The position numbers and the translations under genes were made by a program. Below, in pieces: positions 11,001-63,626 of a stretch of DNA of 64,000 nucleotides; the stretch's first letter is position 1, and each line of letters begins with the position of its first letter. The DNA comes from Podarcis pityusensis (Eukaryota), in NCBI GenBank assembly GCA_964106645.2, contig OZ067040.1; one strand, given 5' to 3'. The notes under the pieces were generated by a model. That model searched no databases. It had not been told where the DNA came from and was given only the letters and a program-made list of their open reading frames with translations.

Positions 11001-12014
11001 GTGAGACAGCAGAATGAGGTAGTTATTGCCAGTAGCTTTCAGGATCTCACTCACAGTTTAAATATTTCACTCTTAGCACAATTTCTATTGTCAGGATTAC
11101 AAAATCAAACAAAAGGAATAGCAATAAATTAATTATCCATCATGATTATTATCATATGATCCAAGCCAGGGGTGGGAAATGGCCAGCCTGTTGAGACCAT
11201 GGAGGGTCATGGAGCCTCACCACCTGAACTGCAGCTTCTACTTCTTAGCCCCCCATCCTACCCCATCATTTAGGTTTGAAAACCTAATTCACACCTATAG
11301 AAGACTACCTTCAAGCATAATTCCAGCACAGGAACATTTTCAGTGGAATTGCAGCTGGGGAAGGAGTTAAGATTTAATAATGACTTTGCACTAGATATAA
11401 ACTGATTTGATAGTTTTTTCTGTTCTCCAGGGCAGGGAATGCTGGGGAGCTCTAGCAGAGAATTCTGAGCACCTTAATCAAACTACAGTTCACTGGCTTT
11501 TTTGTGGGAGGCCATGCTAGTTAAATTGGTAAAACCAATATATGTGGGTAAAATACGTAGCTATAGCATTAGTATCTAAAGATTTGTATACACACCACCT
11601 GTTACAGTATTACTCTAGTGCAATTGCTATCAGCCCCGAATTGTACTGGAAGTTGGCTGAATTTACTTCCTAACAGAGTCTCATTTGCTCCCAGACATGT
11701 TATATTTCTCTACCAGGGTGTCATAAAAATGGCCTATCCATAGCACATGATCAACGTCCTATCCATAGCATATAGGACATAAAGATACCTAACCGCAAAC
11801 TAAGAGTGTCTGGTGGCTTCCAGGATTGTGTATGTTTCCTGATCCATGGGGGTCCCACCCACAAGGACAGGTGATGGTCCAAGCAAGGGGGAGGTCTGTA
11901 GCCCCAAGATTCAAAGCAAACAGGAAGGCAAGGCAAGGAAAGTTCAGCACCTTGGTGAGGGACCAGTGTGTGGGTTTGAGGACCACTGTTAGTGAACCTG
12001 CAGAACATCTAAGT

Positions 12015-12150
12015 CAGACATAGGCAAACTCGACCTTCCAGAAGTTTTGGGACTACAACTCCCATCATCCCTAGCTAACAGAACCAGTGGTCAGGGATAA
12101 TGGGAGTTGTAGTCCCAAAACATCTGGAGGGCCGAGTTTGCCTATGCCTG
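12015..12150. mobile_element. Palindromic hAT MITE, same family as 2471-2605, opposite orientation
   Basis: TIRs CAGACATAGGCAAAC / GTTTGCCTATGCCTG; perfect 8-bp TSD ATCTAAGT (12007-12014, 12151-12158). Confidence 0.9.
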
Positions 12151-13183
12151 ATCTAAGTTGTCTCAGCAATGCCCTGAAGCAAAGGGCAAATCTTATAGCC
12201 TGGGCTAGGTAGAGGCTCCATTCCCTGAGTGCTACATATGGTCAGTTAAAGGGCCCTTTACCACAGAAGTTGATGTCTTCTAGACCCTCGTATTTCAGTT
12301 TGTGGGGATCTCAGAGCTCTCTTGATCTTCCAAGGAGTCTGTGATCCAAACATCAGGGTCTGATTCAGAGGAAGAGATGCAGACTCCAGTGTCCATGACT
12401 CCATGTGGCATAGAAAAGAGAGTTGATCCATCTCATCCTTGGGACTGCCATTGTCAGAAGACTTTCTCTCCAAGGATTCCTAGATTCTACATGATATGGA
12501 AGAAATACTACCACCTGCCACAGTGTTAACTTTTTGGCGGCTTATCCATAATGAATTTTAACTGTGCTATATTTCGCACTGAATATTATGTGAAGGAATA
12601 TAATGTTAACAAATCCTAAGGCTAAACCCTAAAGGGTAGGGCTATTGTGGAGTCTGCCAGCAGCTATTCAAAATCAGCAAGGCCTAGATTTAGGAGGGCT
12701 CCTACACAGGTACAACACAAAAACATGGACAAAAGGAGGAGCCCATCCTTCTAAAACTGATTACCAGGGTGGTGCCAAGAACAGCGATCTATGGAGAGGG
12801 AGCAGGCAGGCATGCAAAACCACCCTCTTTTTTCAGAATTAAAGACCATGGAGGGGGGTAGCACCTGAAGGCAATGTGGAAGACAGGGCATCAAAGGATG
12901 ATTCAGGAACAAAGCATTCTGAGAGTTACTGCATAGTGAGCCACAGTGACCTACCTCAAGCTACCTAGGAGAACATTCAGGCAGAGAATTTTCTTGGTGT
13001 CAGGAGAACTGTCAACATATTCTATTTCTAGAAGTCAATTACTGTGCCTGTCCCTCTGCTTTACCCCACTAGCCCAAATAACAGTCAGCACTGGCAGCAA
13101 AGTCCAAATGGAAGATTGCTGGGCAGCAGAGGAAGGTCATTTCACAACACCATGCAAAATTTCATGCTTTTTCTTTGTGAGTA

Positions 13184-18500: not shown

Positions 18501-19076
18501 TGATACAGAAATTCAAGGAACCACTTGCATCTCCCAAGATAAAATAAACATCTAGAACCAGAGCAGTCCACAGCCCAACTGCTTCTTAGTAGACTAACCA
18601 AAGTGCTTTGGAACCAAACTAGATGCTTTTTAGACCATGGTGATAATGATTACTCATTTATTATTTTCTACAAGAGGGAGAAGGCAGCTTCCTGGTCAAA
18701 GGAAGGAAGAACTTTGCCTTCGATAACAACCCTTTATGCCACTATGTGAGGATCAAGGTTCCCAAATAGAGTACTGCAGAGCCTTATGCCCATCAGCCTG
18801 CAGTACAATATTTTTGCACTGGACACCACAAGGCCAAGCAACTAAGGGAGAAGAGGAATTTAGACAAGCACAACAGGCATGTAGTTTCCATGCAACTCTT
18901 TCAGTTCCATTCAGAAATACACACCCTTTCCTGCAGTGGTGACTGGTTATTTTAAGATCTGTGCAGAAATTTCAGGGCAGATTACAAACTCTTTCCAGTG
19001 GATTCTTGTGATAAGCTACATAACTTCTCTACAAGAAGTAGAGTCGACTTTAGAGGCAGCAGCAGAATACCTCCTA

Positions 19077-20012
<936 letters not shown>

Positions 20013-20949
20013 TCAGGCACCAGCGGGAACCAACTGGCCGCTGAGGCGGATCCTCCTGAAGCGGAGCCACCAGCAGCACACGAGGCGGATTCGCGCTCCA
20101 ATCACCGCCGCCACCAGACGCGCCCGAGACGGTCTAAACGTCCCGCCACATCCTTGTGGCAGCCTCTTCCCTGAAGAGGCAGGAGGAAGGTGGAGGCGGG
20201 GGCGCTTGCCTCGACCTCGCGCCCAGCCGCTTGCAGGCGGCGACAGGAACGCGCGCGCGCGCCCCTGACCGCCGGAGATTCGTTTTTGTTTTTGAAACAA
20301 GGGAACGGACCGCGCGTTTTCCCTCGCGCTTCGCCAAGTCTGTGGCCAAACGCCGCCGTCCGCTTGGTGTCTGGGGGGGGGGGGGCGGAACCTTCCCCTC
20401 GGCGGGTTCCTGGGGGCCAAAGAACCACTTCTCTCCGGATTCCTCGCGCCTCTGCGCACAGCTTTGAGAGTTGCAAGGGGGCGGCGCGCAGCGTCTCTTC
20501 AAGTCCCGCGTCGTCCAGACGTCTCGGGAAGCGACGGGGCCCCCGCTTCTGGCCCGCTGGCGTGACTCTCCCAGGCCCCGGCGAGCGCTCTCCTTTCCCT
20601 CCTCGCCGGGTTCTCTGGCGCAGGCTCCTTGCCCGGAGGTTCCCCCGAGTCGTTTGGCCCCGAGTCGCCCGGAACAGGCACTGAGCTCCCTTCGCAGCCT
20701 GGGCTCTTCTTCTTCGACTTCCCTGCGCCCTGGCAGGTGACGGAGGAGCTCCTTTTTGGCGGGAACAGCGGGCCTTTCGAATTACCTCAGGACTCGCCGT
20801 CGCTTTCTTCAGACTGGCCGGTCGCCGTGGCAGGTGAGACGCTCATTCTCTCCCCGTTGCCCACCCGCCCGCCCTTCCTTCTCTCGCTGCTTTTTCTGAA
20901 GGGAAGAGCGTGGTGGTTTCGCGGTTTCGCTTCCAGCCGGAAAGGCAAC

Positions 20950-21410
20950 TGCTACTTCTACTATTGCCGCCGCCGCCGCTGCTAGTAGTCGAGACTCCTA
21001 CTCCACGTTTGCTTGGCGCTTCAGCCTCGCTCTCTTCTATCTGCGGGCACCACCGCTGCGAAGATTTTTCACAGGCTCCAACTACCCGCCACAACCCTGG
21101 CATTACCCTGTGAGCGCTGACATCACGCACGAGCGCGGCTGCTGGCAGCCAATGGCCATTTCGGAGGAATTCATTATGCAAATGAACAGAGGTAGTGGGA
21201 GGGAGGCGCGAGCTGGAGAACAGCCGGCCATTGAGAAAAGCAATGAGATATACGCTCGCTCGCTCGCTCTCGTTCTCCTCTCATTCGCTCTCTCTCTCTC
21301 CCTCGTTCATTTCGCTGATGGCAGAACAGGCTGGCTGTTTTAGGCAAATGAGAGAGCCCTGCCTTGAAGGGAAATTTGCAATTGTGCACTTTCCCTAATT
21401 ATGCATTAAA
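20950..21410 (-). promoter_or_regulatory. Probable ALK core/proximal promoter (TSS roughly 20.95-21.05 kb, inferred)
   Basis: Distal edge of the island; (GCG)n tract 20966-20979; CRE-like TGACATCA 21118-21125; CCAAT 21149-21153; octamer ATGCAAAT 21176-21183; TAATTATGCAT 21396-21406. Confidence 0.5.
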
Positions 21411-21794
21411 AGATTAAGCGGATCAAGCGAAAGAAAAAAGAGGGGAACAAGTCCCTATGAAATAGGATGTGCATAGGAGGGCTTTAACTCAAGGCTTCTC
21501 TTGGTGCCCTAACAAGATATAAATCACCGTCTTCTATAGAACACAGATGAGGGAATAAAGAAGACTGTGAGGTCTAGTGTACTGGCACAGCATTGTATTA
21601 TTAACTATCTCACAAACAGAGGCAGTGAGCAGACCTGCTGCTAAGTAGTGGTGGAGGTGAGCACATGCACTTCAGAATGTGTCACACCAATGTAAGGCAA
21701 GTCTAGATCATGCCAAATGTGGCCCTGAGCTCATTTTCCCCACTCGCAGGGCAGGGGACACCAAACTCTTGAGACCTGAGGGCACATTTTAAAT

Positions 21795-22030
21795 TGTATT
21801 TGTTTATTAGATTTATATACCACCCTTCAGCATAAGATCTCAGGGTGGTTCACAGAATAAAATACAGGATAAAAACAAGTAAATAAGTAAAGCAAAACGG
21901 GGGACGGGACCCTTCCTACAAACACATTTAAAAGGCCTGGTTGAAGAGGAACATTTGCGCCTGGTGCCTACAAATATTTTATGAAGGTGCTGGGGGAGAG
22001 CATTCTACAAATGGGGAGCCACTACAGATG
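21795..22030 (-). mobile_element. L2 LINE 3' fragment, degraded
   Basis: Same layout as 385-800 (TTTA tail, CACCCTTC..CAGGGTGG stem, GGGGAGCC.CTACAGA). Confidence 0.6.
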
Positions 22031-22215
22031 GAAGATTCAGGGCCAACAAGAAGAAATACTTCATTGCACCACATATAGTGGAACTTGCAACGAAAGGATG
22101 CAGTGAAGCCACCAACTTAGATGGCTTCAAAACGTTGTTTAAATAGATCAAAATTAGCTCTAGAGGCCCAGGGATCAATCATACTTTGGACTGATCCAAC
22201 AGAGTGCTTCTAATG
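22030..22215 (+). mobile_element. CR1 LINE 3' fragment, degraded
   Basis: GGAAGATTCAGG..CAACAAGAAGAAATACTTC...GCCACCAACTTAGATGGCTT and a TGATCCA..AGA..GCTTCT tail resemble the CR1 copies at 26.5 and 40.2 kb. Confidence 0.55.
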
Positions 22216-22341
22216 AATGTTCTTCAGTGCTATTCTCTAGAGACCATTTGCTTTTGTGATCTTCTGTGAGCATTCAAGAAGACTGGGGTCAAAGCCAAAG
22301 GCACTTAACCCATCACTAGCCCTGAGCTGAGCTTGAGTTCT

Positions 22342-22522
22342 TGTAGCTCAGTGGTAGAGCATCCACATTTCATTTAGGAGGGCCCTGGTTCAATCCCCAG
22401 CATTTCCAAGTAGGGCTAGGAATGTCCTGAAACTCTGGAGAGCCACTGAGAATCAGGAGAGACAATACTGAGCTACGTGGGCCAATGGTCTGATTTGGTT
22501 TAAGACAGCTCCCAGTGATCCT
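22342..22522 (+). mobile_element. tRNA-derived SINE (Squam2-like)
   Basis: Box A TAGCTCAGTGGTAGAGC, box B GGTTCAATCCC, body CTGGAGAGCCACTG...GACAATACTGAGCTA; homologous to 31165-31350. Confidence 0.75.
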
Positions 22523-24227
22523 TTCTTTTAAAAAACCAACCCCACAGAATCTAAATTTGATGCAGTCCAGTCTCCTATGAATGTCTCCTGGGAAACAGGG
22601 CTGTCTCTACCATAGACACAGCTGCCTGGGTCCCCAGGATGTAGAATTTAGGGAGCACCCGTTATGCTGGAAGCATCCAGGGCTCTTCACTCCTTCTGAT
22701 ATGGCCAGCTCTCCACGCAATTTGTGGCGTGCCTCAAGCCACTGACAGCACAAGAGGTTCTGTAGCACATGCTCAACACAAGCTCTCACTTAACTCTATA
22801 CTAAAGTGCAAACAACAAACAAAACCACTTGCACCAGCCTTGTAAGCCAATGAGTTCAATAAGGCTATCTCAGAGAATCCTTGGAATAAATTACTTGTAT
22901 GGTTTCATACAAGTCTTTTCCAAGAAAGGAATAAAATAAGTGCAGGTGGTCCGCCCACTCCCACCAAACTGCCTGTGAGGCTCGCTGACCTTCATTCCAA
23001 CCCAATAAAACTCCCCTTCCTGCCCACTTCTGGTGACAGAGAATGGGAGGAACTAAGGAAAAGTACTGATCTCCCATGCCTTGCCCCCTTCTTTACCCCT
23101 TCAAGCCACTACACTCTATACCAGGTGCAACTAATCTGGGGAATGCAAATTTCCCATGGACTACTAACATCCATGGTTGTCTTTGGGTCTTGTTCTTGGC
23201 ACACTTCTTCTTGGGTGCTGCAGGAGAAAATACCCTTCTGTTCTTTTCTCTCTCAGTGCCACCAGAACATTAGCAGGTCCTTGCTAAGTGGTAGGCTGGA
23301 GGATTTTTGGTAGGTGAGATATAGCAGGAGTTCAGTTGGGAGGAGAAAAGCATTTGTATTATTTTCTTTTGCTTGGATAAAAATTTGAGACCAGCATTAC
23401 ATGCCCCTACAATGGCATGTAACAGAAAACATAAGTTTTCACTAGTTACAAAAAGGAAAAAGGAAAGAAAACGATTGAACCTCTACACTTGCATTTAAAG
23501 CTTTCTATTGAGCAAAACTTTCCTGACCTTTCCCCTTTGCAAAAACTAGTTGATCTAATCGAATCTCACAGGGCTGATGCCTGAGACTACCAGATCACTA
23601 TTAGGTTTAAAATTCTGAACTTCTGGAAAAATTCTGCCTATGACTTGTGTGCACACATCCGTTTTCTCTTCACCCAGTGTACTCCCACTGTTGGTTTGGG
23701 AAGCAGTGTACAAACAGCATTAGCCACAATCCACACCTATCCTGCCATTTCTATGAAATACAGTGTTTTGATCCCACCCACCCACCCACCCCAGCCCACC
23801 GCCCAAACAGCTTCAGTCCAAATTGGGGAAAAGAATAACCTAGCTACAAAAAAAGCTGGTGGTTGTGCACACAGCCTAAATCTGTTTGAAAGACCGAAGT
23901 GTAATTTTTCCCCACCTCCGTTTGGCAGAGGGTTTCATGGAAGGTCACGTATGTCTGACTTTTCCTGCCAGGTGAAGATTAATAGCCTCTGCACTGGGGT
24001 GATTTTCACACTAACATGTATTTATTCCTTCGACTTTATAAAAAATAAAAAGGTGAACATCATTTGTAAAGCATTTCCAGTGTAGGAGGTACAATGCAAG
24101 TGTTATTTCCAACCTTTGGAGAAGGTTGCCCAACTAGCTAGTCAAACACCTGGTGAGCAGCATCAACATCCAGCTTTCTGTTTCATTTAAGAAAGAAAAT
24201 AAAAGATGAGGGCTTTACAAGTAAATG

Positions 24228-24368
24228 CCTTTTACCACTGAGGCATTGCCATAACCACCAGCCACCTTTGAAGGCAACAGTTTTCTAGATAAGCCATGAA
24301 CCCTGATCTAGAAAACTGTTGCCTTCAAAAGTGGATGGTGGTTATGGCAAGGTCTCAATACTAAAAGG
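24228..24368. repeat. Long inverted repeat (~63-bp arms, 15-nt spacer)
   Basis: Inner 45 bp of the arms are complementary with 2 mismatches. Confidence 0.9.
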
Positions 24369-25754
24369 AAGAGCACTCATACTCTGCCTTTCTAGCTTTC
24401 TGACATAAGGCTGATCTTTTTCAGGTATCTTTTGGAGTATAATGACTCCTTAACTGACAAACGAATGCTGTTCCTGCTTACTTTGTGTCTTTGGTTTGGC
24501 TTCTGCTGCTTTTATTAGTTTGCTGCCTTGGGTTTTATGCAATGGTTTTAATTTCTGCTCTTTTTAGTTATGTACTTTAAGCTGCCTTGGAGATTTTCAA
24601 TCAAAAGGCAGCATAGATCTGTTTTAATAAACAAACTAAAACATATGCTCAGAGGCAGTATACTTTTCATGTCTAGACAAAAACAATAGAGGTTGCTGAG
24701 AAGTTGAGATTTCATCTGACACCAGCTCTGAAAATTGATTCCATCCTTGGGATTGTCAGCATGATTTTTCCTCTTCCTCAATGGGCTCCTGTACCTGTAA
24801 CACCTGGGTGACATGCAAACATACAGCAACTGTAGGAATTGGGAATTCAGTTTGTGGTAGTTGCTATTGATTAGATGTTTCCTTGTGTATATAGTGCCAT
24901 TGATGTACACAGTGTATGCATGCTAGTAACAGAGGGAGTAATATGAAATATCAACTTATTTTTTAATGCACACCAACAGCAGCACAAGGTACATGAGTCC
25001 TGCTTGTTTGCCCAGAGGTATAATGTGGTAAAAAATGAGATGTGAAAGAGATTGGGGCTGGGAGATTATTATTCAGATTTATTGCAAATGCATTCATATC
25101 ATAGCATGCTTTCTGGAACCAAACCCTGGCCACCCCTGGCTCAACCTACCAATTTATTTATTAATGATATTTATTCCATTTATATCCTGTCTTTCTTCCA
25201 TGATGGAAAGGCAAGGCAGTGTACATGGTATTCTTCAGCACTCTCCCAGGCTGGATGACTGCAACAGACTAAATGTGGGGTTGTCCTCAAAAGTGATCCA
25301 GAAACTTCAATGAGTCAAAAATGCAATTCAAGTTACTGCCATTTAGAACATACATAACCCCAGTTTTGAAACAGCACCATTGGTTTGTCTCCAGCCCCAA
25401 TTCAAGGTGCAGCTTGAATTGATCAAAGCAATAAACAACTGAGGTCCAAAATATCTGAAAGATTGGCTCCTTCCCTACAGACCCTCTGATGTATGAACGG
25501 GACCCTCTTAGTAGTTCCACCACCCTCAGAAATTTGGGGAGCAGTGGCCCAGAAGAGGGCATTCTCTGCGGCTGCGGCTAAACTGTGAAATTCCCTCCCT
25601 ACAGGTGCAGCTGGTACCTTCATTATATAGTTTCTCCCATTAGCTGAAGATGCACCTTTTTACCCTGGCCTTTGACACTTGAGATGTGTGTTTTAGGACT
25701 CATCTTATTTTCTTGATTATAATTTGTTTTTAACAGTTCTTAATATTGTACCAA

Positions 25755-26117
25755 GGGACGCGGGTGGCGCTGTGGCTAAAAGCCTCAGCGCCTAGGGCTT
25801 GCCGATCGAAAGGTCGGCGGTTCGAATCCCCGCGGCGGGGTGCGCTCCCGTTACTCGGTCCCAGCGCCTGCCAACCTAGCAGTTTGAAAGCACCCCTGGG
25901 TGCAAGTAGATAAATAGGGACCGCTTACTGGCGGGAAGGTAAGCGGCGTTTCTGTGTGCTGCGCTGGCTTGCCAGATGTGGCTTTGTTACGCTGGCCACG
26001 TGACCCGGAAGTGTCTCCGGACAGCGCTGGCCCCCAGCCTCTTGAGTGAGATGGGCGCACAACCCTAGAGTCTGTCAAGACTGGCCCGTATGGGCAGGGG
26101 TACCTTTACCTTTACCT
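25755..26117 (+). mobile_element. Full-length Sauria SINE (Squam1)
   Basis: GGGACGCGGGTGGCGCTGTGG head, box B GGTTCGAATCC, (ACCTTT)3 tail, perfect 14-bp TSD TTAATATTGTACCA (25740-25753, 26118-26131). Confidence 0.95.
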
Positions 26118-26135
26118 TTAATATTGTACCAGTGT

Positions 26136-26402
26136 GAGAGAGCCAGTGTGGTGTAGTGGTTAAGAGCGGTAGTCTCGTAATCTGGGGAACCAGGTTTGCG
26201 TCTCCGCTCCTCCACTTGCAGCTGCTGGGTGACCTTGGGCTAGTTACACTTCTTTGAAGTCTCTCAGCCCCACTCACCTCACAGAGTGTTTGTTGTGGAG
26301 GAGGAAGGGAAAGGAGAATGTTAGCCGCTTTGAGACTCCTTCAGGTAGTGATAAAGCGGGATATCAAATCCAAACTCTTCTTCTACTACTACTACTACTT
26401 CT
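26136..26402 (+). mobile_element. Squam3-like (Ther1/MIR-derived) SINE
   Basis: GAGAGCCAGTGTGGTGTAGTGGTTAAGAGC head, GGGTGACCTTGGGC core, (CTT/CTA)n tail; three more near-identical copies in the window. Confidence 0.88.
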
Positions 26403-26529
26403 AAATTGTTGTAACCTGCCCTGGGACTTCATACTGAAGGGTGGGTAAGAAATCTAAAGAGCAACAACCACAGCCTATTGAGTTTTGCACTTCTGCACAT
26501 ACCGAGGACACAGGTGACCGGCGGTAGGA

Positions 26530-26688
26530 ATGCTTATGAATACCAGTTGTTTGAAACCACAGGAGGGGAGAATGCTGCTGTGCTTGGGTTCTGCTTTCAG
26601 GTTTCTCACAGTTGTCTAGTTTGCATGAACAGGATGCTGGACTAGATGGGCCATTAACCTGATCCAGCGGACTCTTCTTAGTTTTCAT
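26530..26688 (+). mobile_element. CR1 3' UTR fragment
   Basis: GAACAGGATGCTGGACTAGATGGGCCA..CCTGATCCAGC..CTCTTCTTA; also seen inverted at 5285-5362, 40245-40425 and 44152-44235. Confidence 0.6.
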
Positions 26689-27018
26689 TACAACCCACAG
26701 TCTGCTGTTTGCTTAAAAAAAACACCCAACAACCTGAAATGCTGGTACCAAAAGCCTCAAAAGCTTTCTAATCTATCCAATCCCTTTTTAATTATTCCTT
26801 TAAAAAAACATTTTAACTCCCCAAGAGATAAGACATTTGAAAAATTAAATAACACCATAACAACACCGACAACTCCCCCCATAGATATTCATGTTTATTA
26901 CATATCCAGATGGCACACCTGTGAACAGTGATTATCTTCCAATTGCATTTTTTGTTCAGTGCCTTAGGGTTGTAGTCCTACTCAGGGTACACCCACTGAA
27001 GTTAACAGACATGACTAA

Positions 27019-27235
27019 TTACAGGTAGGTAGCCGTGGTGGTCTGCCGTAATCGAAACAAGATAAAAAAATTCCTTCCAGTAGCACCTTAGAGACCAACT
27101 AAGATTGTTATTGGTATGAGCTTTCGTGTGCATGCATGGTATCTGAAGAAGTGTGCATGCACACGAAAGCTCATACCAATAGCAAACTTAGTTGGTCTCT
27201 AAGGTGCTACTGGAAGGAATTTTTTTATTTTGTTT
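27019..27235. mobile_element. Penelope-like element remnant with inverted partial pseudo-LTR
   Basis: ~82-bp inverted arms 27055-27136 and 27154-27235; 12-bp TSD AGACATGACTAA (27007-27018, 27236-27247); contains a hammerhead motif. Confidence 0.8.
27137..27178 (+). ncRNA. Minimal type I hammerhead ribozyme motif
   Basis: TGGTAT (stem I 5') - CTGAAGA - A - GTGTGC AT GCACAC (stem II) - GAAA - GC - TC - ATACCA (stem I 3'); predicted cleavage after C27172. Confidence 0.78.
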
Positions 27236-28364
27236 AGACATGACTAACTTAGGTTCATTATTTCAGTTCATTTACTCTGAAAAGAACTTAGCTAGAGCCA
27301 ACCCTTAGTAGTTCTAAGGGACTTAAAAACAGCCACCTACAATTATACACACAATATAATACTTCTTTTTAAAAGTTCATGACGGAATGGAGCGGATATG
27401 ATCCCTCATTCATGAGTAGCTAAATTATTTACTTACATAAACCACACTGAGCATCATTTGAGCGAAAGTTGTGCCACAAATTTTACAATTCAATTAACAC
27501 ATGAATTATAGTTTTGGGCAATGCTGGCAACACCATATCAGTAATGGTATCCAATAACTGAGGCAGAACCAAGACACAAAACGCTTTATTTTAAAAGTAT
27601 AAAAGATAACAACAGCAAGAGGATTGAGCACCTGGGTCTGAGCTGCCCCGCATTGCTACTTCCTTTCATAGTAGGGGGTAAGGGGCCTATGGCCCTCCAG
27701 ATACTGGACTCCAACTTGAATCAACCTCAGCCAGAATAGCAACTAGCCAGAGATCATTGGAGTTGGTGCTCAGTAATATCTGGAGTTTATAGTCCCATCT
27801 GTCATAAAGGTATACTACCTACAAAATGTCTACTTCAGTAGTAGTCCTGACACCATCACCTAGCATGGCCAGTAAATTCTGAGGCTCAAAGACTCCAGTG
27901 GGCCCACTGACACCTTTGATGTGTCCACATTCCCTGCCCCCTTTTGTCTGAGTCTTGGGATTCAGCTATACAGCTGCAAATAAAATGTTTTAAGTGTGTT
28001 ATAAAGTGTAATATACAAATGTGACACTAGATGGCAACAGTGAGCTATGGCAAAATCGATGTGTTTTTCAAAACCTTTTTTTTAAAAAAAGCATTTTCAC
28101 AGTGTTTTTTCAATATGTGTGTACATTCCACCTTGGAGTATTTGGTGCAACTTATCCTTCCGCACAGACCAACACAACACTGTCAGTGGTGCCATGATGA
28201 TCTGCTACTAGTCCAATTTTGCAGACCTGGGGATCCAGCAGAAATGGCAGAATTCACATGACTGTAAGGTCTTCAACACACAAGTTGTAGTGCTAGCTGT
28301 AGGAAAACTCAGATTATAGTTTTAGCATATAATTATGTTATGGAACACTGTGCAGGGAGACATG

Positions 28365-28962
28365 TGTCAGGAGCTGGAGTTAAGAGCAGGTCAGCAATAA
28401 AAAAACACTGGTGTAGGTAAAATTAACTCTTTAGTCAAGGAAACCAAAACTATGCAGGCCTACTGATCCCAGCAACTCTTCCCGGTAGACCTTTCCCCAG
28501 TGAGGCAGTTGCAAGGCTCCTCCCCCAGGTCCTTCCCAAGCAATCTTAGACTTCTTCACTGTGTCTGTCTTTGCTCCTCCCTCTTCATACGTCCTCTGGT
28601 TCTGGGATACCAGGTGGGAGGGGAGTTGGGCACAGCAGGAGGGAGAGACTCCCTGGTTTATTCAGCAGCCTGCCTCATCTCTCCTCTCCTGCCTCTGAGT
28701 CTGGACTGCTCTGTGCCACAGCCTGCTCTCTGCCATAGCATCTTCCTGCTCACTAAACGCAGTTGCCTCTCCTGCTTCTGACACCTCCCTTCTCTCCTCC
28801 TCCTCCTCCTCCCCTCAGGATGCTCCCTTTTCTCCCCCTGACCACACATTGTCATCCCACCAACAATCCCCTGGCTCTGAGCCTTCTTACTCTGGGAGTT
28901 CCCTTGGGGGTTCCCCAGCTGGTGCCTCCCACCACTCCTCTGTATCCAGCTAGTCCATGACA
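28365..28962 (-). mobile_element. Solo LTR (598 bp), probably Gypsy-type
   Basis: TGTCA...TGACA termini with short imperfect inverted repeats; perfect 5-bp TSD ACATG (28360-28364, 28963-28967). Strand and superfamily are tentative. Confidence 0.75.
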
Positions 28963-30782
28963 ACATGACACTTTGAGCAAGGGAATTATATTCATCTTAT
29001 CATGGGGTCTGGGTTAAGTCTACATCACTTGAAGTAGTGCTGTTCTCATCAAAGTAGAACCATCCTTGGGCACACGTGCTCTTAGTGGCCACAATGGGGA
29101 AATATAGACTTACTACTTACTGTGTAATATAAGCAAATTATGAATTATTCTGTCTGTGTAGTTCCCATGAAATCATTGGGACTACACTGCTAGATGTGTG
29201 AGGGAATTGTTCCCTAAAGAATTGGCACTACATTAATTGAAGACAATGACACCGTTGCCTTTAACCTTAATGGTTCAGAATCCGAATAAACTTAAGCAGT
29301 GCAATTACACTGTGGATGAGAACTAATTGCCTCCTGGTGCTGGTGCTGCCGATTTAAATAAATTAATGCCCCTTAGTATGTGTATTTTTTTACCATGCAG
29401 GTATGCTGACTACATAGCAATTCCAGCGACATTACTCTGTTGTGTACATTACCATATCATTATGGAAAATTAGCAGTAATTACAAGTGTACAAACACAAA
29501 TCAATTTTTGTTTTTATGCAACTATGCATTACGCTGAATATATGGTATAATTACAGCCAGCACATCCGAATGTATATCCAAGCATTTTTTATCTCCCTAT
29601 GTTATAAAAAATAGAATGCTCATATTATTATAACGACACATCATGTAGCATTAATATATATATTGGACAAGATTGTAAAAGTTTATAGGACAAGGCTCCT
29701 ACCAGCACATGCACACGCACGCACACTCTACAATATTATACTATATACACTTGCATTACCTTTTGTTTTTGTATTGTACATTGCCTTGTGCACTTTTTGT
29801 GGAATTATTATTATTATTGTTATTATTATTATTATTCCAACAGAATGGTAGCTCATAAAAACAATATAAGAACACAAAACAGACCCAAGTCTGGAACCAG
29901 GTACAGGCAGTCTGTATCTGCTCAAAGAGAATACTCTTTTTATTTTGCATGCTTCACAGTTGTGCCATGCATTGTTCCCTGCTGTGCTGCTTTTTTCCCA
30001 GAGCAGTAGGTGCAACTGCAATGTGAAGCGCCTCCTGCAATATATAGCCCTGAACCAATGAGTCAGGCTGCCCTGTCTCAGTTCTGCATCCTACAAGTGT
30101 TCAATGTGCCACTTTGTCTGCTTGCAGCCTGGGGGTCAGATCTACTATAACTCCCCTATTATAACCTTTCAGCTTCACAGACTTTCAGGCTCAATACAAG
30201 GTGCTGGTTTACTTGTCCCAAACAGTTGTTGACTAGATTATCTGAAGGATAAACTACATGAACCTACTTGTATGCTAAGATCATTGGGAAAAACCCTGTT
30301 GCCCAGCTCTTTACCTTGGAAAGCGCAAAAGTTGGGGGAGCGTGATTAGGCTTTTATCAGTGGTGGCTCCCAAACTGTGGAACCTTGTATCCAGGAGACT
30401 CAGCTTGCACCATATATTTTCATTTTCAGATGGAGAGTAAAAACCATTCCAATTACAGTCTAATGCTATACATGTCTATCCGAAGTAAGCTTCCAGGTAA
30501 GTGCTGTTTTGCTGGGTAATTTATGTATATATTTTATGTGGGGGGGGGGAGCATTACAGGTAATAGAACAAGTGATATTTTACAAGGTTATTTTGTGTAG
30601 CTGTACTCTGGGAACCCTTGAGGTCAACAATTCTTATAAATATATAAATTAAATCCCCAATGGTAACTTAATGTCCAGTCTTCTCAAACATCTTTACTGC
30701 TGCTTCTACTTCTCACTAGAAAGGTTCCATCTTCTCCAGTACACAAATGACCCATTCAACTCAGTGGTGCCACCAGAGCAGC

Positions 30783-31032
30783 AGAAGAAGAAGAGTTTGG
30801 ATCTGATATCCCGCTTTATCACTACCCGAAGGAGTCTCAAAGTGGCTAACAGTCTCCTTTCCCTTCCTCCCCCACAACAAACACTCTGTGAGGTGAGTGG
30901 GGCTGAGAGACTTCAAAGAAGTGTGACTGGCCCAAGGTCACCCAGCAGCTGCATGTGGAGGAGCGGAGACACGAACCCGGTTCCCCAGATTATGAGTCTA
31001 TCGCTCTTAACCACTACACCACACTGGCTCTC
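30783..31032 (-). mobile_element. Squam3-like SINE
   Basis: Reverse-complement near-identity to 26136-26402. Confidence 0.88.
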
Positions 31033-31164
31033 GCAGGGCATCTGGGCAAAAGTCTGGGTCTCCACTAAAGCAGAATGAGCAGGACAGCCTCCATATTTTG
31101 AAGTAAGTAAAGTAATACACATGGCCATATAAAGAACCTTTGTCTTTTAAGACCCTTAATTTAG

Positions 31165-35700: not shown

Positions 35701-36665
35701 CAGTGGTGCCCCGCAAGACGAATGCCTCGCAAGACGGAAAACCCGCAAGACGAAAGGGTTTTCTGTTTTGGAGGCGCTTCGCAAGACGAATTTCCCTATG
35801 GGCTTGCATCGCAAGACGAAAGCCCATAGGGAAATGCTGGCGGTCGGGAGCAAAGACTTTCGCCCACAGCCGGCCTTCAGAAGAGGACCTCTTCTGAAGG
35901 CCGGCGGGGGGCAAAAGTCTTTGCTCCCCCCCGCCTGCCTTCCCCCCGCCTGCCCCGGGCGATCTTAAAATGCTGGCGGGCGGGAGCGAAGCGTTCGCTG
36001 CCGACCCCCAGCATTTTAAAATCTCCCCCTGTCCCGGGGAGATTTTAAAATGCTGGGGGTCGGCAGCGAAGCGTTCGCTGCCGACCCCCAGCATTTTAAA
36101 ATCTCCCCGGGACAGCAGAGAAGTCTCTGCTGTCCCGGGGAGATTTTAAAATGCTGGGGGTCGGCAGCGAACGCTTCGCTCCCGACCCCCAGCATTTTAA
36201 AACGCTGTTCCGAAGCGGGGCGGGGGGCGGGAACACCTGCCCCAGCCGCCCCACTTCGGAACGCTGTTCCGAAGCGGGGCGGGGGGCGGGAACACCTTCT
36301 GAAGGCGGGCGGGGGGCGAAAGTCTTTGTCCCCCCTGCCTGCCTTCCCAGGGGCTTTTAAATCGCCCCGGACAGCGGAGAAGTCCTCCGCTGTCCGGGGC
36401 GATTTTAAAATGCCGCCCGCCAGCATTTTAAGATCGCCCGGACAGCGGAGAAGTCCTCCGCTGTCCTGGGGTTTTTTAAAATGCTGGGGGTGGGAAGAAA
36501 AGCCCTTGTCCCCCCCCCCCCCAGCCTTCAGAAGGCGGTTTCCCTAGGAATGCATTGATTGATTTTCAATGCATTCCTATGGGAAACCGTGCATCGCAAG
36601 ACGAAAAACTCGCAAGACGAAGAGACTTGCGGAACGAATTAATTTCGTCTTGCGAGGCACCACTG
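35701..36665 (+). mobile_element. 965-bp non-autonomous Tigger-like element with GC-rich palindromic core (element A)
   Basis: TIRs CAGTGGTGCCCCGCAAGACGAA / TTCGTCTTGCGAGGCACCACTG, TA TSDs, repeated subterminal CGCAAGACGAA. Confidence 0.9.
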
Positions 36666-37310: not shown

Positions 37311-37559
37311 AGAAGAGAAGAGGAGGAGTTTGGACTTGATATCCGACCTTCCACTCCCCTTAAGGAGTCTCAAAGCGGCTAACAATCTCCTTTCCCTTCC
37401 TCCCCCACAACAAACACTCTGTGAGGTGAGTGAGGATGAGAGACTTCAGAGAAGTGTGACTAGCCCAAGGTCACCCAGCAGCTGCATGTGGAGGAGCGGG
37501 GAAGCGAACCCGGTTCACCTGATTACGAGTCCACCACTCTTAACCACTACACTACACCA
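37311..37559 (-). mobile_element. Squam3-like SINE
   Basis: Homologous to 26136-26402 in reverse. Confidence 0.85.
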
Positions 37560-63325: not shown

Positions 63326-63581
63326 AGAAGAAGAAGAAGAAGAGTTTGGATTTGATACCCCACTTTATCACTACCCGAAGGAGTCTCAAAGCGGCTAACA
63401 TTCTCCTTTCCCTTCCTCCCCCACAACAAACACTCTGTGAGGTGAGTGGGGCTGAGAGACTTCAGAGAAGTGTGACTGGCCCAAGGTCACCCAGCAGCTG
63501 CAAGTGGTGGAGTGGAGACGCGAACCCGGTTCCCCAGATTACGAGACTACCGCTCTTAACCACTACACCACACTGGCTCTC
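63326..63581 (-). mobile_element. Squam3-like SINE
   Basis: Reverse near-identity to 26136-26402; (GAA)n tail. Confidence 0.88.
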
Positions 63582-63626
63582 ACACTACACACACTCAGCC
63601 ATCTATGGAGCTAGAACTCAACAGTA

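Follow-up and report, generated by a model that had tools for sequence, protein, structure and literature searches.

A Penelope-like insertion of two head-to-head pLTR ends upstream of ALK in Podarcis pityusensis very probably carries a hammerhead locked inactive in a predicted hairpin

Minimal type I hammerhead ribozymes are a described feature of Penelope-like elements (PLEs). The sections of Cervera and De la Pena (2014; PMC4209133) cited here describe thousands of mostly single, truncated pLTR copies in metazoans, pairs of opposite-strand hammerheads 100-700 bp apart, and hammerheads with a helix I of 4-5 bp, an unpaired base before stem II, a G10.1-C11.1 pair and a palindromic 15-16 region. 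Minimal PLE hammerheads are reported there in turtle and snakes, with monomers inactive and dimers of low activity. Passages of PMC8557442 and of the report on Adineta Pen2a (PMC3846280) describe inverted pLTRs, an inverted 5'-truncated copy at the 5' end, junction palindromes, a one-sided tail of 30-40 bp and target-site duplications of about 8-10 bp; in PMC3846280, head-to-head junctions are attributed to self-priming on an antisense template. In the lizard Anolis carolinensis, the tail of the Poseidon element PAc is set by two RT start sites, and the hammerhead lies upstream of them. According to the portion of PMC11167929 used here, both strands are nicked, uncut RNA is the main insertion substrate, and the hammerhead cut only after addition of the element's protein. 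Finally, the non-LTR retrozymes, as characterized in the cited part of 10.64898/2026.07.22.740005, are non-coding, PLE-derived and equipped with a type I hammerhead.

We analysed a window of 64 kb (C3:90,148,001-90,212,000, on contig C3), which contains a 217-bp, ORF-less insertion made of head-to-head pLTR arms and bracketed by a 12-bp direct repeat (Table 1). Its hammerhead resembles those of PMC4209133 in the short inherited helix I, the extra base (A27150) before stem II, the G27151-C27164 pair (G10.1-C11.1) and the palindromic AGCU at 15-16, and its family likewise consists of very many truncated copies, often with an antisense arm nearby. The lizard family is not named in the cited sections of that report, and the window copy differs in directly abutting its own antisense arm. 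Compared with the insertions of PMC8557442 and PMC3846280, with which it shares the inverted truncated copy, the junction palindrome and the one-sided tail, the window copy has no ORF, consists of pLTR ends only and has a duplication of 12 bp. Two points separate the present element from Poseidon PAc as described: it has the CX2-5CxxC linker of Neptune and Nematis, and the first Met in frame falls within its tail, stem II being where the ORF of PAc begins. It is non-coding and PLE-derived like a retrozyme, but has one ribozyme and head-to-head arms in place of a head-to-tail tandem. We conclude with high confidence that this is a dead-end insertion of a Neptune/Nematis-type PLE, consisting of two head-to-head pLTR ends, the hammerhead of which is predicted to be hairpin-locked and inactive. 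What is directly seen here is family membership, the target-site duplication, the arm structure, the one-sided tail and the copy number.

Table 1. Coordinates of the insertion, its hammerhead motif and the neighbouring ALK exon (window positions)
Feature	Position	Strand	Remark
ALK first coding exon	19290..19949	-	ORF and ALK homologues
Left target-site duplication, 12 bp	27007..27018	.	exact direct repeat with 27236-27247
Left arm, inverted pLTR fragment	27019..27136	-	112/118 bases identical to family copy L074
Inverted repeat, two 85-nt arms	27052..27238	.	95% complementary
Junction dinucleotide TG	27137..27138	+	parent copies retaining the upstream pLTR read CAGTGTAT here
Right arm, pLTR fragment without tail	27139..27235	+	96/97 bases identical to L074
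Inherited minimal type I hammerhead	27139..27176	+	4-bp stem I, C3-A9 core, extra A, palindromic stem II, GAAA
Stem I strands	TGGTAT 27137-42, ATACCA 27173-78	+	sequence
Core CTGAAGA	27143-49	+	sequence
Extra A between positions 9 and 10.1	27150	+	sequence
Stem II	GTGTGC 27151-56, AT, GCACAC 27159-64	+	sequence
GAAA, then GC; U16.1; C17	GAAA 27165-68; U16.1 27171; C17 27172	+	sequence
A15.1-U16.1 within palindromic AGCU; C17	AGCU 27168-71; C17 27172	+	sequence
Right target-site duplication, 12 bp	27236..27247	.	exact direct repeat with 27007-27018

The 42-base motif (27137-27178, + strand, with C17 at 27172 as read from the letters) has the type I order, with a CUGANGA core, GAAA and UH. The initial annotation gave its full core and coordinates exactly, and the class proposed there, a minimal type I hammerhead of PLEs, gains support from the link to RT and GIY-YIG ORFs described below. 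At up to 3 mismatches the motif has a single match in the 64 kb (0.00 expected), and no second hammerhead core for a cis dimer was found within the window. Judged by sequence, the motif is the pLTR hammerhead of a PLE; it is real but ordinary, its class being already described in the cited sections of PMC4209133. The 6-bp stem I first annotated is real in the window copy, but only 4 of the 6 pairs are inherited, the other two being contributed by a junction TG that is foreign to the parent element. In parent copies the bases preceding CUGA are CAGTGTAT, which pair with AUAC at 4 positions before meeting a U-C mismatch; the sister family has CAGAGTAT or CAGGGTAT before the core, likewise with 4 stem I pairs. 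Among 44 core matches, GTAT occurs in 35, GTGTAT in 17 and TGGTAT in 4, these four having been deliberately picked and four further TGGTAT matches on C1 excluded. Native upstream sequence is kept in 0 of 29 distinct TGGTAT loci. On this reading of the letters, the family's stem I is 4 bp and the additional TG is junction sequence.

The 6-bp stem II of the initial annotation did not hold up, as it would close a 2-nt loop; the 14-nt palindrome folds as 5 bp with a CAUG loop. As regards covariation of stems I and II, read by eye, pair 6 of stem II changes from C-G to T-A in the sister family (4 loci), and both sides of pair 4 are changed in L189 and L193. This reading is based on 17 and 5 pattern matches, with patterns that fixed the outer three pairs, and L190-L193 are old and partly mismatched. 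The Rfam search proposed earlier returned no hammerhead model at E<=10, which is weak evidence against the class, since the minimal form is without stem III and PMC4209133, in the part cited, used a relaxed descriptor. A miRNA precursor was rejected (best Rfam score 36 bits, with a gathering score of 90), and the sub-threshold matches to miRNA-hairpin models are due to the inverted repeat.

Genome-wide searches place the motif in a large family. Exact copies number 101 for the 42-mer (control 0), 1,136 for the 30-nt core (reversed-pattern control 0) and 1,584 for the downstream 32-mer (control 0), all of which are lower bounds for family size. Copies extending upstream reach the end of a GIY-YIG frame and those extending downstream reach an RT frame. 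Two copies, L129 (C1:45.76 Mb) and L131 (C7:34.98 Mb), are complete, with a single 921-codon open frame, absent from the window copy, that encodes RT plus GIY-YIG at the C terminus, between pLTRs. Their hammerheads lie 3,010 bp apart, their pLTR pairs are 99.5% and 99.8% identical, and both pLTRs of each carry the window motif with one loop base different. Pfam matches of the protein to RVT_1 (E 7.9e-12) and GIY-YIG (E 3.5e-5) both exceed the cut-off; the protein has no exact-sequence match in the protein cluster collection. The linker CNKPRCQLC (CX4CXXC) precedes GIY-YIG in L129, L130 and L131. According to the cited part of PMC8557442, a CX2-5CxxC linker defines Neptune and Nematis; Neptune, not Nematis, has been reported in vertebrates. 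The linker motif, shared by Neptune and Nematis, points to a clade of either type. The family is young and probably still mobile, and reads of its young subfamily occur in RNA run X23. At least two other hammerhead repeat families, with a CUGAUGA core and a different stem II, were also seen (L266, L267, L269, L273 and L275; L190-L193).

The motif lies within an inverted repeat of 85 nt, a feature absent from the initial annotation. The left arm extends from inside stem II (+11, counting from nucleotide C3 of the core) to the end of the tail; because it begins within stem II, it is without CUGAAGA and forms no minus-strand ribozyme. Its extra tail is about 35 bases long, and 27019-27051 have no partner in the right arm, which runs from the first stem I base (-4, GTAT) to a T-rich short end. 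The window copy does not contain the TATA box of the element. The segment 27000-27260 folds into a single hairpin of -154.8 kcal/mol (z -21.5), and none of 200 shuffles was equally stable. The inverted repeat is thus predicted by folding models to sequester the ribozyme.

Other family junctions bear on the probable origin of this arrangement. We surveyed the first 100 of 1,584 matches to the downstream anchor, with arms on contig C1; the following counts refer to these 100 arms. An inverted partner lies upstream in 59, and among the 61 surveyed arms that reach the core, 30 have an antisense arm upstream. The 3' ends fall into two groups about 40 nt apart, 61 at +76..+107 and 38 at +120..+140. 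The 5' ends lie upstream of -10 in 27 arms, at -10..+1 in 37, at +2..+25 in 34 and at +26..+44 in 2, with a mode at -4 (10 arms). One arm in the 100 ends near the cut site (+28..+31), which indicates that most templates had not been cut, as with PAc. A long end is paired with a short one in 40 of 48 inverted loci (44 of 52 rows, 4 loci being counted twice), and the automatic finder detected a target-site duplication of at least 8 bp in only 24 of the 52 rows. Junctions differ between loci, and each insertion was therefore made anew.

The reading we prefer is priming from two nicks. The element's protein would place a nick in each strand, with about 12 bp between them, and each nick would prime copying of the RNA's uncut 5' end, from two fixed sites that are some 40 nt from each other. 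This accords with the nicking of both strands and the pair of RT start sites described for PAc in PMC11167929. One of the cDNAs may have reached the likely first base of the RNA, G at -4, while the other would have stopped in the palindromic stem II, the two being joined with TG between them. It is less probable, though by no means negligible, that an insertion of the same origin became head-to-head because a single cDNA, or an antisense template, folded back and primed itself. A palindromic stem II lies at many junctions, and self-priming is proposed in the cited part of PMC3846280, but a simple fold-back predicts exact mirror arms from the junction, whereas here the arms start at -4 and +11, and the unequal outer ends at two fixed sites seen in most of the inverted loci speak against it as well.

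The 5' ends of insertions cluster on the ribozyme's first base, not on the cut site, and in the element G(-4) follows a TATA box (TATATAA at -35) by 31 nt. For a non-native base at -5, the first 100 of 276 matches give G in 65, against about 30 expected from base composition. With G at -5, T stands at -6 in 101 of 165 (29% expected), and an extension to -7 is not significant (12/29, p 0.15). We tentatively suggest, at somewhat short of an even chance, that the mRNA starts at G(-4), with the hammerhead at its very 5' end, and is copied uncut from both nicks, the G or TG being a copied cap or the result of snap-back on stem I. This reading was not found in the literature searched. The promoter of D. 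virilis Penelope is described, in the passage cited, as TATA-less, from which the lizard element would differ. Spliced RNA is another idea for 5' ends at stem I, as TTTCAG preceding TGTAT resembles an acceptor, but the ends lie one base further, at GTAT, which fits splicing poorly. In L130, L077, L078, L090, L091, L096 and L097, ORF sequence runs directly into GTATCTGAAG, the same hot spot as the insertion 5' ends, which suggests template jumps at the RNA 5' end.

The naming of ALK as the neighbour was borne out. A minus-strand frame from 19949 has 74 matches to proteins of ALK architecture, most named ALK and ranging from reptiles to fish (best E 1e-117); the best is a wall-lizard protein, 100% identical over 88% of the query. 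The motif lies 7.2 kb (7,188 bp) upstream of the start codon, and the end of a GC-rich stretch is near 22 kb. Searches of PDB and Atlas gave no match to ALK exon 1, and a genome search with PF12810 found only a place on C1, which left the further ALK exons downstream unplaced. Two studies supplied four raw RNA runs, which share a species label with datasets containing the element; 6-12% of each was compared with 19000-28600, and the animals may lack the insertion. Among datasets containing the full element none was listed as RNA, and 14 rows guessed to be RNA were set aside as evidence. Depth was 10-42 in the insert bin and 0-0.06 in both flank bins; thus no reads of the locus were seen in the unique flanks in these runs, and ALK was silent there. 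At 27182, 488 of 490 reads have the family's A, not the G of the window copy, and therefore come from other copies. Run X23 has 217 reads that extend past 27139, upstream, into a young-subfamily pLTR, which means that uncut RNA across the 5' side of the ribozyme exists. No pile of read ends at the cut site (27172/27173) was listed, and fragmented libraries see such ends poorly. The ALK exon 1 bins (19000-19641) had zero depth, so the runs say nothing on transcripts that would diverge from the ALK promoter when it is active. Reads near 19749 and near 20966 were not taken as ALK expression, since they join via GCC repeats and may be of other genes. The tie of the ribozyme to ALK implied in the initial annotation is unsupported, there being no flank reads and more than 1,100 copies of the core, and an effect of the window hammerhead on ALK is unlikely.

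The surrounding region is itself duplicated. The window recurs about 253 kb lower on contig C3 at 99.0-99.8% identity, including the insertion and an ALK exon 1 with an identical 220-aa translation. This second copy spans at least C3:89,885,238-89,987,000; probes at C3 89.80, 89.83, 89.86, 90.005 and 90.03 Mb had no match at the offset. Two explanations would fit: a haplotype left uncollapsed, or recent duplication of the 5' end of ALK. A 250-bp interspersed repeat, presumably SINE-like, occurs in four copies that are 88-94% identical (26134-26393, 30777-31035, 37311-37557 and 63326-63585) and has heavy RNA coverage from other copies. Other palindromic elements of 120-250 bp, unrelated to the PLE stub, lie at 2460-2610, 12005-12161, 24228-24368 and 35829-36497; the first two are mutually related, and 35.8-36.5 kb is a nest of palindromes.

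Two further readings give the insertion a role or a life of its own. Transcribed stubs might supply dsRNA for small-RNA silencing of the active element. Although the stem is 85 bp long and near perfect, and the family is present in RNA, no transcription of the locus was seen in the four runs, and we consider this function very improbable. Slightly less credible still is a non-autonomous element, retrozyme or MITE-like palindrome, that copies itself and spreads as a unit. It would account for the inverted arms, the target-site duplication and the many similar palindromes in the genome, but junctions and arm ends vary from locus to locus, the sole identical junction among the loci read lies within the large regional duplication, and retrozymes, in the part of 10.64898/2026.07.22.740005 cited, are head-to-tail tandems with at least two ribozymes.

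To return to the passenger hammerhead of a dead-end insertion, folding bears directly on whether it can cut. We estimated the cost of forcing stems I and II with the core unpaired, using a nearest-neighbour model without Mg2+, tertiary contacts or proteins. The predicted cost is +1.5 kcal/mol for the isolated 42-mer, with pair probabilities of 0.54-1.0 for stems I and II, and 3.5 kcal/mol for an RNA starting at GTAT. It rises to +16.0 kcal/mol for an RNA from 27125 (12 more upstream bases), +27.2 kcal/mol for nascent RNA 27019-27178 and +37.8 kcal/mol for the whole insert, all three with stem pair probabilities of 0.0. In a plus-strand transcript the left arm would precede the ribozyme, and it would pair with the 3' strand of stem I along with GAAAGCUC and stem II. 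The hammerhead fold is thus predicted to be disfavoured by 16-38 kcal/mol in transcripts derived from upstream, which is a large margin. Between two 42-mers, pairing by the stem II palindrome has a predicted energy of -25.2 kcal/mol and pairing by AGCU one of -3.9. Since the former is far stronger, dimers formed in trans are not necessarily active ones.

These predictions run against the initial claim that any plus-strand transcript could self-cleave after C27172, as do the single core in 64 kb, the missing TATA box and the empty flanks. Least probable of all is an active cis ribozyme cutting transcripts divergent from the ALK promoter: its core is intact, its stems form in the modelled 42-mer with stem I lengthened by TG, and a transcript starting about 10 bases or less from 27139 would avoid the left arm, but that arm is predicted to oppose the fold, the copy has no promoter, cis partner or flank reads, and minimal PLE hammerheads are the poorly active class noted at the outset (PMC4209133, section cited).

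The window copy is best regarded as a dead-end passenger hammerhead that is predicted to be inactive in place, and for ALK the insertion is very likely of no consequence. Hammerheads that look intact need to be folded together with their flanks. The many junctions of this family form a natural record of how PLEs integrate and of what the ribozyme is for; if the mRNA does start at the first base of the hammerhead, the stubs record the life cycle of the element.
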